Source of the DNA: a virus
Virus genome (UHGV): UHGV-0036008
Reading direction: 5' to 3' (one strand)
DNA length: 42,664 nt
Below, one piece after another: positions 6,469 to 35,655 of this stretch. Numbering within the stretch: position 1 is the stretch's first letter; every line of letters begins with the position of its first letter. The position numbers were made by a program, and so were the translations under genes. Below the pieces are notes generated by a model that saw nothing but the letters and a program-made list of their open reading frames with translations, was not told the origin of the DNA and made no database searches.

Positions 6469-6559
6469 TTACCTCGGTCTGTTACCGTTGAGGTAATAAT
6501 TATGCGTATTTGGTTTGATGTCAATAGATATGAGTTAAAAAAATTACCCATCAGGTAAT
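6469..6559. promoter_or_regulatory. OL-like operator cluster: TTACC half-site plus two ATTACC-N5-GGTAAT palindromes
   Basis: Sites at about 6482..6497 and 6543..6559 between repressor terminator and leftward early operon. Confidence 0.6.
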
Positions 6560-6571
6560 AGTATAGGCAAT

Positions 6572-6594
6572 AAAAAAGCCGCCAGAAGGCGGCT
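6572..6594 (-). terminator. Rho-independent terminator of repressor gene
   Basis: GCCGCCAGAAGGCGGC hairpin followed by U6 on minus strand, 20 nt after repressor stop. Confidence 0.6.
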
Positions 6595-6615
6595 TACTTA
6601 CTGAAAAGTATGATT

Positions 6616-7200
6616 TTATTGTTTGTTTTTTTCGTTCTGGTTGATGACAAATTCAATGTAACTTTCGATCTTTGCTTTCTCGGTTTCGGGTAACAATGCG
6701 TAGCGCGAGCGGTCATAGTTGATGGTCGCAGGGTCGTGCGGGTGAATCAGTAATTCATAGCCGTGACGCCCGAATGCGGATGCAACATTCTCCAGGGTGG
6801 AAATGGAAACGCTGACCTCATTGTTTAACAGGCGACTGATTGTCACCTGGGCGACGCCGGATGCGCGGTGAAGTTTTCCCTGCGTTGAAAGGTCGCGGCT
6901 TTCGCTCATCCAGCGTTCCAGGTTGTGAGCCGCCAGCTGACCAATGTCGCTTGGGCCGACAGGCTGAAAACCTTCCTGAGAAAGCGAGCGATCGATATCA
7001 AGCCAGTTACGGGGTTTATTGGCGGCAGCTTCAATTTTTCGCGCAACCTGGTCGCCGATAACCTTCTTGCCAAGAGCCCAGCGGTTTACCAGATTTGCCT
7101 GAGTTCCAAGTTTTTCTGCCATCCGCGTCTGAACACCATTGAATTCACGGTCGATCAAGTCGTTGAGATTTTGCCTGCGGACGTCCTGGATACTTTTCAT
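6616..7200 (-). CDS. Prophage repressor, tandem XRE-type HTH, no S24 peptidase domain
   Basis: 194 aa; two HTH-like segments (QTRMAEKLGTQANLVNRW and ASGVAQVTISRLLNNEVS); sits between OL- and OR-like operator clusters, divergent from cro-like gene. Confidence 0.6.
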   Translation of the reverse strand: MKSIQDVRRQNLNDLIDREFNGVQTRMAEKLGTQANLVNRWALGKKVIGDQVARKIEAAANKPRNWLDIDRSLSQEGFQPVGPSDIGQLAAHNLERWMSESRDLSTQGKLHRASGVAQVTISRLLNNEVSVSISTLENVASAFGRHGYELLIHPHDPATINYDRSRYALLPETEKAKIESYIEFVINQNEKNKQ

Positions 7201-7254
7201 TTTCTGGAAAATCGCCTCATATATGAATCAGTAGATGATTCAATTTAAAGCAAT

Positions 7255-7319
7255 ATTACCCAACAGGTAAATGCACCTCATAGGTAACTATCCTTGATTT
7301 TTGTTACCTTATGGGTGAA
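7255..7319. promoter_or_regulatory. OR-like operator cluster in repressor/cro divergent region
   Basis: ATTACCcaacaGGTAAA at about 7255..7271 and degenerate TTACCttatgGGTGAA at about 7304..7319. Confidence 0.6.
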
Positions 7320-7354
7320 TATTTATTATCTGAAATAAATATCAGGCAATAGCT

Positions 7355-7585
7355 ATGAGCGATAACGGACATTTCGATTTCAAAAAGCACTGGCTTGCAC
7401 TTACTCCGGATGAGCGTGAAGCCTTCGCACAGGAAGCCGGAACGACGAGTCACTATATCCAGACTCACTTAACAGGTAAGCGCAAAATGCCAGGTAAAGT
7501 ATTGATGAATGGGCTTTTTAAAGCCTGTAAAACAAGACAATGGCTGCGCTCAAAAGCAGAACTGGCATACTTCTTCTACTCATGA
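7355..7585 (+). CDS. Cro-like HTH regulator
   Basis: 76-aa ORF divergent from repressor; LTPDEREAFAQEAGTTSHYIQTHLTGKRKMP resembles Cro/YdaS-type HTH. Confidence 0.5.
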   Translation: MSDNGHFDFKKHWLALTPDEREAFAQEAGTTSHYIQTHLTGKRKMPGKVLMNGLFKACKTRQWLRSKAELAYFFYS

Positions 7586-7606
7586 TATCCAGCTACAACC
7601 CTCTGT

Positions 7607-7631
7607 AGACCGCCACCCGGCGGTCTTTTCA
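7607..7631 (+). terminator. Rho-independent terminator after cro-like gene
   Basis: AGACCGCCACCCGGCGGTCT hairpin followed by TTTTC. Confidence 0.55.
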
Positions 7632-7735
7632 TATCTATTCGTACCTCAAAGGTAATAAATAACCAAATCTGGTTGATCTTTTTTTTGTGTCAGCACAAAA
7701 TGACCGTAATCCCAATACTAATAACAGGGCTTACC

Positions 7736-33422: not shown

Positions 33423-33690
33423 GGCACATCCCTGTGCCACCGCCCGTCAGAAGAACCCTGCCTTGTCGTTGATGTACTCCGCGTGCGTCTGGATATCACG
33501 CAGGCATTTGCTCACACCGACGATGTAGCAGAACATGGTGGTCAGTTCCGCCGCCGCGCCCGATACGTCGTGCCCGTCTTCCTGTAACTGGTTCAGCAAA
33601 TTCATCAGCAGTGAGTTCTCCGTCAGGCCGAGAACACCAGACGGCGAATGAATCAGGCTACGGTAGCCGGGCTTCAGTGGGGCGCTGTAG
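33423..33690. repeat. Copy B of roughly 260-bp direct repeat (see 1309..1571)
   Basis: Hand alignment, about 95% identity. Confidence 0.8.
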
Positions 33691-34157
33691 GTTTTGTTCT
33701 CTATCTTCATCGCCTGCATTACTGCTGACGCCGTGGCGTTGGCTACCTGGTCGGCAACCATCTTTATGCGTTCTTCCTGCGGGAGCGAGTTTTTAATGTA
33801 GCTTCCGGTGCGGCGGATCTGAGGAAGAACCTCACCTGTAACCCATTTACGAAAGCGGTAGGGGATAGTGCCTGGTGTCACTGCGTCGCGGCAGCGGAGG
33901 ATCAGTGTGTAGAGGCCTGACTCGGAGATGATGTTGATCTCTTTTACTCGGCTGTCAAAAATTGCACGATGTTCATGCCCTATGTTGAACATAGACCTTT
34001 CATCATCATCCAGTTTTTCAAGTGCTTGGGTGACGTTTTGGATACGCAGCGCACTACAAACGTCTTGGGCTACAAACCATGGTTGGCCATCGATAATGAT
34101 GGAACGGATAGGGTTAACAGATTCAAATTTGAAGATGGAAGTTTGAGCATTAGCCAT
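33447..34157 (-). CDS. Antirepressor-like protein, Bro-N domain plus shared C-terminal domain
   Basis: Bro-N pattern (FKFESVNPIRSIIIDGQPWFVAQDVCSAL...ISESGLYTLILRCRDA...RFRKWVTGEVLPQIRRTG); ATG at 34157 with GGAG RBS. Confidence 0.6.
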   Translation of the reverse strand: MANAQTSIFKFESVNPIRSIIIDGQPWFVAQDVCSALRIQNVTQALEKLDDDERSMFNIGHEHRAIFDSRVKEINIISESGLYTLILRCRDAVTPGTIPYRFRKWVTGEVLPQIRRTGSYIKNSLPQEERIKMVADQVANATASAVMQAMKIENKTYSAPLKPGYRSLIHSPSGVLGLTENSLLMNLLNQLQEDGHDVSGAAAELTTMFCYIVGVSKCLRDIQTHAEYINDKAGFF

Positions 34158-34313
34158 GGTGGTTATCTCCACTTAGTGATTTTAATCACCACCGCAACGC
34201 CAATTACTGGTGGTGAACTGGACAAGGTTGGCGTACCGGCCTAAGTGGTACCGGCGTCCTTTCGGACCCCTGCCCAGCCCACCATAATTCGGATATAGCT
34301 GTGCTTAACGCAT

Positions 34314-34420
34314 AAAAAAACCACGTCTGGCGTGGTATGCGCCACTTAGTAACCCGGGACGCCAATCCCGGCACTGGATTTTGCCAGTGCCCGATTACTA
34401 TGGCACAAGAGGAGTGCGAT
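34314..34420 (-). ncRNA. Candidate structured leader / attenuator or small RNA upstream of Bro-N antirepressor gene
   Basis: Minus-strand hairpins (CACTGG..CCAGTG; CCGGGA..TCCCGG) ending in terminator ACCACG-CCAGA-CGTGGT plus U7 at about 34314..34336; no ORF. Confidence 0.3.
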
Positions 34421-34426
34421 GTAAAT

Positions 34427-34535
34427 TTACCGCAAAGGTAATGATAAACGCGAAGAAATATTAAAATCAACCGTATTTGGTTGATTGCGTTTAACGCTTG
34501 ATCACCTGAAAGCAAGATATTACCTTTAAGGTAAT
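34427..34535. promoter_or_regulatory. Two ATTACC-N5-GGTAAT sites in divergent promoter region
   Basis: TTACCgcaaaGGTAAT (about 34427..34442) and ATTACCtttaaGGTAAT (about 34519..34535). Confidence 0.55.
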
Positions 34536-34554
34536 GTTATTGTGAGGAAAAGCA

Positions 34555-35283
34555 ATGGAAGTTTTCTGGATAGTTGTTGGTGTGGTTGCGGTGATTATTT
34601 ACGTTATCAACCAGAACAAGACTAAGATCTCTGATCGTACGGTCGTTAATCAGAACAAAACGATAAAGACCGAAGATGGGGAGGTAACGATTAGTCGTAC
34701 ACAGGTGATAGAACACACATCTACTCAGTTTCAAAAAACTGGAGGTAACGCGCCTGATATTTCCGTACCTCCTGCTTATGATAGTGCGGTAATCCAGACA
34801 TATTATAAACAGCAGGAGTTAGCAAAAGAGAGGCAACTGATTCAGCCAAAGCCGTTTACAGCTGAGCTTCCACCTGGAGTGTCAACGCGTCCGGCATATC
34901 ATGGAAGATTCCCTGGTGATGACATATCGTCTCAGTCATCTAAAAAAGCACCTCAGGCAGTATCAGAGCCAGCAAGAATACCTTCTGTATCGCCGCCAAA
35001 AGAAGAATCAGCTAACAGAGTTTCAAGTGGCCGCAAGCAGTGTTTGCGATGCAGAATAAACCTTCCATATGACAAATTCCGGAAATCGTCAAAAAATCCA
35101 GATGGATTGACTAAGTGGTGTGCAAGGTGCCTCGATGGCCCAAAGAATACACGCCATATGAAGTGGTGCCCAATTTGTAATGTCCGCAGAAAACGGACCA
35201 GCTTTTACCCTAATAATCAAAATGCGGACGGCTTAATGGCATGGTGCAAAACGTGCTGGGACGAGCACAAAGCGAAACGATAG
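34555..35283 (+). CDS. Membrane-anchored protein with duplicated C-terminal zinc-ribbon motif
   Basis: N-terminal TM helix (VFWIVVGVVAVIIYVI); two repeats of C-x2-C...N-x-DGL-x2-WC-x2-C. Confidence 0.5.
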   Translation: MEVFWIVVGVVAVIIYVINQNKTKISDRTVVNQNKTIKTEDGEVTISRTQVIEHTSTQFQKTGGNAPDISVPPAYDSAVIQTYYKQQELAKERQLIQPKPFTAELPPGVSTRPAYHGRFPGDDISSQSSKKAPQAVSEPARIPSVSPPKEESANRVSSGRKQCLRCRINLPYDKFRKSSKNPDGLTKWCARCLDGPKNTRHMKWCPICNVRRKRTSFYPNNQNADGLMAWCKTCWDEHKAKR

Positions 35284-35307
35284 GCCGCTCTTGCGGCCTT
35301 TAAATTT
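35283..35307 (+). terminator. Intrinsic terminator
   Basis: GGCCGCTCTTGCGGCC hairpin followed by TTTAAATTT. Confidence 0.5.
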
Positions 35308-35565
35308 ACCGGGTTTGTTTTCGTAATTGTTCGGCACAATAGTCGAGATGTGTTTGCAGATCCTGCATAGACATCTGTGAGCTGGTGACGTAGTTAATCA
35401 GTGCAGTCAGTTCGGCAAGTGGGCCATCGACATTAAATCCATCCTTATCGAGATCCCGGAGTAATTTCATCAAGTGCGATCCCTCCACCAGTGACCTGAC
35501 GCCTCCCGGCGTGTGAATCCTTTCGGTAAATCCGTCTTCCAGTGGATAGTGATACTGCTGCATCT
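35306..35565 (-). CDS. Stand-alone copy of the antirepressor C-terminal domain (86 aa)
   Basis: From internal Met with GGAGAAG RBS; YHYPLEDGFTERIHTPGGVRSLVEGSHLMKLLRDLDKDGFNVDGPLAELT...DLQTH aligns with C-termini of ORFs 1334..2053 and 33447..34157. Confidence 0.45.
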
Positions 35566-35638
35566 TATCTTCTCCATGCAATAACTGTATGTTTATACAG
35601 TAACAAATAATTTGTTTGCTATCCAGCACGTTTTGCAA

Positions 35639-35655
35639 ATTACCCGAAAGGTAAT
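35639..35655. promoter_or_regulatory. ATTACC-N5-GGTAAT site between stand-alone domain gene and tailspike
   Basis: ATTACCcgaaaGGTAAT. Confidence 0.5.

Follow-up and report, generated by a model that had tools for sequence, protein, structure and literature searches.

Recurrent palindromes in a phiV10-like prophage

The DNA analysed here, a 42,664-nucleotide stretch of the virus genome UHGV-0036008 (hereafter the window), shares about 98% identity with phiV10, vB_EcoP_PAS61, vB_EcoP_ZX5 (ZX5) and further phiV10-like podoviruses (genus Uetakevirus); the Salmonella phage epsilon15 is a more distant relative. It starts 49 bp before int and carries, at ~41094, the attachment (att) core ATTGAGTGGGAATGATT, which has been described for the phiV10/epsilon15-like group (PMC9782041) and at which the prophage ends. 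The window is thus nearly a whole prophage plus ~1.5 kb of host DNA. Three small regulatory genes matter for what follows: the master repressor gene rep (6616..7200, minus strand, 194 aa), a divergent gene for a small Cro-like regulator (7355..7585, plus strand, 76 aa) and the small antirepressor gene ant (35306..35563, minus strand, 85 aa). Our subject is a 17-bp palindrome, ATTACC-N5-GGTAAT, found at nine separate loci of the window. Sequence comparisons suggest that these palindromes are very probably the operators of Rep, a repressor of the SPC32H/epsilon15 family.

The initial annotation had proposed that the palindrome recurs beyond chance, and the counts bear this out. A scan of the window returned four exact copies (6543, 9586, 34519 and 35639), against none in 100 dinucleotide-preserving shuffles. 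Twelve copies have at most one mismatch (6481, 6543, 7255, 9586, 9648, 13230, 13248, 16441, 33359, 34426, 34519 and 35639) and 17 have at most two, for which the shuffles gave a mean of 1.08 and a maximum of 5. Degenerate copies at 7272, 7303 and 7640 (the last intergenic, with two mismatches) are kept at matching places in relatives, which makes 15 sites in all. The sites first listed were real, but their coordinates needed correction: 6482, 7641, 33360 and 34427 were one base off, the copy placed at 7304 starts at 7303, and the one at 7272 had been overlooked. When every 5+5 palindrome in the window with a gap of 0–8 was counted without bias, the same motif stood out, TTACC-N5-GGTAA being by far the commonest with 11 exact copies (the runner-up had 4).

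The sites had also been said to lie in non-coding DNA, and a comparison of coding with intergenic sequence agrees: all 15 fall within the 9.0% of the window that is non-coding in our curated gene map. For the 12 best sites, random placement would give this result with P ~3e-13 (0.09^12). As unrelated DNA we scanned 100 kb of Escherichia coli K-12, which holds no match at up to one mismatch and eight at two mismatches. Given this rate of eight per 100 kb, the coding two-mismatch matches of the window (11658, 28156 and 39528) were treated as chance occurrences. The absence of good matches from K-12 also bears on whether the motif is the site of a host transcription factor, or else a structural or packaging signal. 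One pair of sites adjoins terS, a frequent location of pac sites, and otherwise nothing specific favours such a reading. The motif is kept in phages of four host genera and at promoters all round the genome, well beyond terS, so that a host or packaging function seems most improbable.

Conservation and existing annotation of the sites

We scanned six relatives (phiV10, epsilon15, Tyrion, SPC32H, BUCT554 and BUCT711), whose hosts are E. coli, Salmonella, Enterobacter and Klebsiella. Each genome has 8–12 copies at up to one mismatch, 71 in total, and the check for orthologous positions that had been suggested gave a clear result. Copies recur at the leftward early operator region OL (2–3), the rightward region OR (3), past the Cro-like gene, at the nin-like operon (2) and at terS (2), as well as at the head/tRNA region, between ant and the tailspike gene, at the lysis cassette and 58 bp before int. 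Both the sites and their spacing are kept where the flanks have often diverged. The two copies at the leftward early promoter PL and those at the nin promoter Pnin lie 62 bp apart in 13 of the 14 pairs from the seven genomes; the PL pair has this spacing in six of the seven, and a spacing of 63 bp in BUCT711.

The site upstream of int, ATTACCTTAAAGGTATA, corresponds to phiV10 26869 and is kept in five relatives at its distance of 58 bp. In the window only its right half, AAGGTATA (1..8), is present, the rest being cut by the window edge. The left attachment site must be outside the window.

Part of this set has already been annotated. The epsilon15 record (GenBank AY150271.2) has seven protein_bind features labelled 'repressor / lysogeny', each an exact ATTACC-N5-GGTAAT. 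Three of them are at OL, one each precedes terS, the head operon and the nin-like operon, and one separates gp19 from the tailspike gene. The feature at 19895-19911 is the ortholog of the window's copy at 35639. The palindrome is therefore a known operator type, already annotated for this phage group, and the window provides one more ordinary case of an established lysogeny switch. Operator features are missing from the record of phiV10, the closest relative, and likewise from other phiV10-type records (ZX5, PAS61 and others), to all of which the epsilon15 annotation can be carried over. A paper of 2007 by Kropinski et al. reportedly gives the consensus ATTACCWDWWNGGTAAT; a text search for the string gave no match.

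The sites also bear on the start of terS. In phiV10 this gene is annotated from 41, so that its operators at 86 and 104 fall inside the coding sequence; in epsilon15 and Tyrion the annotated starts lie past the two operators. Judging from the sequence, the start in the window is likely to be the ATG at 13263/13266 and not the TTG at 13185, and the phiV10 start should probably be moved downstream of its two operators.

Rep as the probable binder of the palindromes

The product of 6616..7200 had been named as the likely binder over early, structural and accessory units, and both the epsilon15 annotation and the homology of this product to SPC32H Rep point the same way. Its residues 1-190 match the SPC32H Rep structure (PDB 5D50_A, E 4e-42). 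The repressors of phiV10 and of ZX5 (ORF21 in ZX5) are 100% identical to it, those of epsilon15 and SPC32H 42–43% overall, and the Salmonella and Klebsiella homologues 42–45%. The alignment shows a well-conserved N-terminal domain in which NLVNRW is invariant, which fits an unchanged operator. A Pfam search of Rep gave HTH-type matches only, and the peptidase S24 autocleavage domain was not found.

Two papers that summarise Kim et al. 2016 describe how such a repressor works in SPC32H. Rep binds palindromic DNA as a tetramer, with DNA-binding pairs drawn from different dimers, and tetrameric Ant disassembles and releases it (PMC9638917; release also in PMC9986798). Its N-terminal domain binds DNA, its middle, HTH_3-like domain serves dimerisation, and its C-terminal domain, one of a kind associated with DNA looping, serves tetramerisation (PMC9986798). 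Two details proposed at the outset disagree with these accounts. The binder had been taken for a dimeric protein, and the family's repressor reportedly binds as a tetramer (PMC9638917); it had been credited with tandem helix-turn-helix motifs, and reportedly only the N-terminal domain is DNA-binding (PMC9986798). For ZX5, overexpression of the repressor abolished free phage, blocked lytic growth and lowered holin and endolysin mRNA by >99.9% (PMC9782041).

An unrelated siphovirus, Pseudomonas phage PseuP_224, provides an independent link between the half-site and the protein. The N-terminal domain of its cI is homologous to that of Rep (39% identity, residues 4-68), and its genome has four copies of TTACC-N4-GGTAA, two on each side of cI (10906-10945 and 11768-11820) and nowhere else. 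The half-site is that of the window, with a spacer one base shorter, which ties TTACC to the Rep-type N-terminal DNA-binding domain. The PseuP_224 sites are confined to the immunity region, which shows a spread of sites over the whole genome to be a trait of the epsilon15 group.

The Cro-like protein could be the main or an additional binder, repressing early promoters whose start is covered by a site and perhaps activating late ones from sites upstream, at about -60 to -80. It matches a family of phage transcriptional repressors (phrog_35, E 5.6e-13), and it is 76–100% identical across the genus, with AGTTSHYIQTHLT invariant; its helix-turn-helix, too, is invariant, which parallels the invariant motif. 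Several sites lie upstream of core promoters, in positions typical of class I activators, and lambdoid Cro and CI are known to share operators. However, nothing links this protein to the TTACC half-site, for which PseuP_224 points to the Rep-type N-terminal domain. We regard a role of this kind as possible though rather doubtful; it is in any case compatible with binding by Rep and does not exclude it.

Position of the sites relative to predicted promoters

Matches of a generic sigma-70 scan were no commoner in the window than in shuffles, and we used them only where position and conservation agreed. At OL, the proximal operator GTTACCGTTGAGGTAAT (6481..6497) is centred on the predicted start of PL, a TTGACA-17-AATTAT match (10/12) on the minus strand at 6524..6496; the final two nucleotides of its -10 are the first two of the operator. 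The distal operator, an exact copy at 6543..6559, lies 62 bp from the proximal one, with its centre near -61 of PL. The nin region has a PL-like architecture. An exact distal copy (9586..9602) lies in an auxiliary position near -61, and the proximal operator (9648..9664), 62 bp downstream, is centred on the predicted start of Pnin (TTGATT-17-TTTAAT), the -10 of which reaches two nucleotides into it. Between two nin-region genes there is also an intergenic copy with two mismatches, ATTATCACTTTGGTGAT (12741-12757), to which phiV10 has no match at up to two mismatches; it could be a weak extra operator.

The region between rep and the Cro-like gene has three sites. Site a, ATTACCCAACAGGTAAA (7255..7271), is adjoined by the degenerate site b, TGCACCTCATAGGTAAC (7272..7288), in the same layout as in epsilon15 (33340/33357) and SPC32H (34389/34406). 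Site c, GTTACCTTATGGGTGAA (7303..7319), also degenerate, overlaps the -35 and the spacer of the predicted rightward promoter (TTGTTA-17-TATTAT, 7301..7329). Past the terminator of the Cro-like gene, CGTACCTCAAAGGTAAT (7640..7656) lies at about -60 from a replication-gene promoter, TTGATC-17-CAAAAT, which we infer by eye. At terS, site 1 (13230..13246) is immediately preceded by a TTGCAT hexamer and a terminator hairpin (13194-13211). Site 2 (13248..13264), 18 bp from site 1, ends at the terS start codon and is centred on a predicted transcription start with PL-like -10 geometry and a poor -35.

The remaining sites belong to structural and accessory units. The copy at 16441..16457 lies where tRNA-Arg (16043-16119, minus strand) and the head operon diverge, and one of its half-sites supplies the -10 (TACCTT) of a conserved, leftward TTGACA-17 predicted promoter directed toward the tRNA gene. 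The copy at 33359..33375 has its centre at the predicted start of TTGCAG-17-TACTAT, a leftward promoter for an accessory gene of phrog_5954, function unknown. The copy at 34426..34442 is placed in the same way on a leftward predicted promoter, TTGATT-18-TATCAT, for isrK, C4 RNA and the Bro-N protein. In both cases the -10 hexamer reaches 2 nt into the operator. Rfam places isrK (34314-34390, 67.7 bits) and a C4 antisense RNA (34206-34289, 66 bits), both on the minus strand, between this operator and a Bro-N gene (33447..34172). By these matches the segment is a P1 immI-like or Gifsy-type module of RNA and antirepressor-like protein, under predicted control of Rep. In the exact copy at 34519..34535 a half-site again provides the -10 (TACCTT), this time of a rightward TTGATC-17 predicted promoter for the gene at 34555..35283. 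The last exact copy (35639..35655) lies in the divergent region between ant and the tailspike gene.

It had been suggested that essentially every promoter region carries the palindrome. This does not hold throughout: the lysis cassette, the promoter side of rep and the LexA-controlled ant promoter differ. The start-centred sites, the half-sites serving as -10 and the tripartite OR together fit plain occlusion of RNA polymerase, so far as predicted promoters can tell.

Bound repressor might instead act within transcription units and stop elongating RNA polymerase rather than initiation, as the stoperators of mycobacteriophage L5 do. The L5 repressor gp71, like the repressor considered here, has many sites over the genome, and the terS pair and the site at 7640 lie just past terminators, where read-through transcription would reach them. 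The L5 sites are asymmetric, oriented 13-mers inside transcribed regions. In contrast, those of the window are palindromes and thus without orientation, none of the 15 is coding, they lie mostly on promoters, and at least seven fall on a predicted -10 or start site. The only PDB matches of Rep were SPC32H repressor structures, in searches that included no comparison aimed at L5 gp71. The analogy with L5, drawn in the initial annotation, therefore fails on symmetry and position, and a stoperator function is very unlikely. We rejected the stoperator, host-factor and pac-site readings on the grounds of symmetry, non-coding placement, absence from K-12 and spread beyond terS.

Proposed repression and induction by Rep, Ant and LexA

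Binding by Rep suggests the following scheme, modelled on the SPC32H/epsilon15 family. The N-terminal helix-turn-helix of Rep would read the TTACC half-sites, and the protein would act as a tetramer with two DNA-binding pairs. At seven promoters, bound Rep would occlude RNA polymerase directly. At PL and Pnin, where the second operator lies 62 bp (about six helical turns) upstream, a single tetramer could span both operators and clamp the promoter; the invariance of this spacing fits one tetramer bound to the two along a single face of the DNA.

Ant matches the antirepressor chain of the SPC32H structure (PDB 5D50_E, E 4.1e-47), and a perfect LexA box, CTGTATGTTTATACAG (35585..35600), kept in relatives, lies 22 bp upstream of its start codon. 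Induction is thus expected to pass through LexA and Ant and not through cleavage of the repressor. DNA damage would inactivate LexA and free the ant promoter, and Ant would then strip Rep from all sites together, so that early, replication, packaging and accessory units would be derepressed jointly. A single Rep regulon over these units is what would allow one LexA-controlled antirepressor to release them all at once. Such a regulon leaves the current understanding of this phage group unchanged.

The window has the motif, the site positions, Rep, Ant, the LexA box and the att core of the epsilon15/SPC32H Rep-Ant-LexA switch. All the defining features that we looked for were found, and by sequence this is a member of that system. 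It differs in having extra sites at accessory cassettes (33359, 34426 and 34519), in having none at the lysis cassette, and in its Rep, which shares only 42% overall identity with the Salmonella proteins and retains a conserved N-terminal domain.

Other well-known switches resemble it in part. In phage P1 one repressor, C1, also controls scattered units, induction goes through an antirepressor and not through repressor cleavage, and a C4-type RNA precedes an antirepressor-like gene, the immI module of P1 consisting of the C4 antisense RNA and Ant. The dispersed C1 operators are asymmetric 17-mers, however, and C1 is not known to be related to Rep; the window has palindromic sites, and its main antirepressor is the small, LexA-controlled Ant. 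Lambda CI shares the use of multiple operators at divergent early promoters, which in the window takes the form of the tripartite OR between rep and the Cro-like gene; by analogy, cooperativity and looping are likely here as well. In lambda, operators occur only at OL and OR, CI is cleaved via RecA, and the late genes are under the Q antiterminator. In contrast, the sites of the window reach packaging, structural-region and accessory promoters, and Rep is without an S24 domain.

Late promoters and a second palindrome

A second palindrome, AACCATATATGGTT, with the core CATATRTGGTT, occurs at 7661-7674, 16495-16508, 34469-34482, 35681-35694 and 39111-39124. At up to three mismatches we found six matches (five non-coding and one coding), against 1.66 expected. 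Four of the five non-coding copies lie within ~55 bp of a Rep operator; the fifth, at 39111, is without the operator present in relatives. At the head, tailspike and lysis units the block CATAT(A/G)TGGTT is followed, after 9 nt, by a -10-like TAWWAW, with no good -35. The distance from the end of the operator to this block is 40 bp for head, 28 bp for tailspike and, in relatives, 31 bp for lysis. Each distance is constant in every genome where the block was found, with the intervening sequence diverged. The second palindrome may be part of the late promoters, or a second regulator may bind there. The three distances are out of helical register with each other, which counts against activation of late promoters by the Cro-like protein.

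In the window, no copy of the Rep site lies upstream of the lysis cassette (39185 onward), where relatives carry one. The interval between the tailspike gene and this cassette (38879-39185) also lacks the O-antigen-modification genes found there in relatives. The viable phage ZX5 has the same arrangement of 38879-39185, at 99% identity, so the lysis-cassette site must be dispensable for lysogeny, and some of the repression of late genes in ZX5 may be indirect.

Several of these points weigh against a simple scheme in which Rep alone occludes every promoter of the regulon. All promoters are predictions, made from consensus matches backed by position and conservation. The site at 35639 overlaps no recognisable core promoter, neither that of ant nor that of the tailspike gene, and the one at 16441 overlaps the leftward promoter only and not that of the head operon. 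We could assign no convincing core promoter for the head-directed (rightward) use of 16441 or for the tailspike- or ant-directed use of 35639. The lysis block at 39111-39124 has lost its upstream operator in both the window and viable ZX5. Finally, the Cro-like protein is conserved still more strongly than Rep, and some of the operators could be its own or be shared by both.

We also sought a partner at a fixed distance from the single late sites. A GGTAAT half-site lies 62 bp from the operator in the -10 region of the head promoter and 50 bp from it at tailspike, and there is none at lysis; no common rule emerged. A speculative and rather unlikely arrangement is that a second regulator reads AACCATATATGGTT at the late promoters while Rep, from its own site, acts by anti-activation or by bridging to the GGTAAT of the -10 region. 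Candidates for this regulator would be the Cro-like protein, itself invariant, and some product of the early-left operon. If true, this would be a two-signal late switch, of which none has been described for this phage group so far as we checked.

Minor observations

Two further matches concern neighbouring regions. Over its final 150 bp the tailspike gene matches that for the endosialidase tailspike of CUS-3, a K1-specific phage. In the early-left region, Rfam reports an sRNA-Xcc1 match at 2095-2184 on the minus strand (64.2 bits, gathering score 53), which overlaps an open reading frame of 61 aa.

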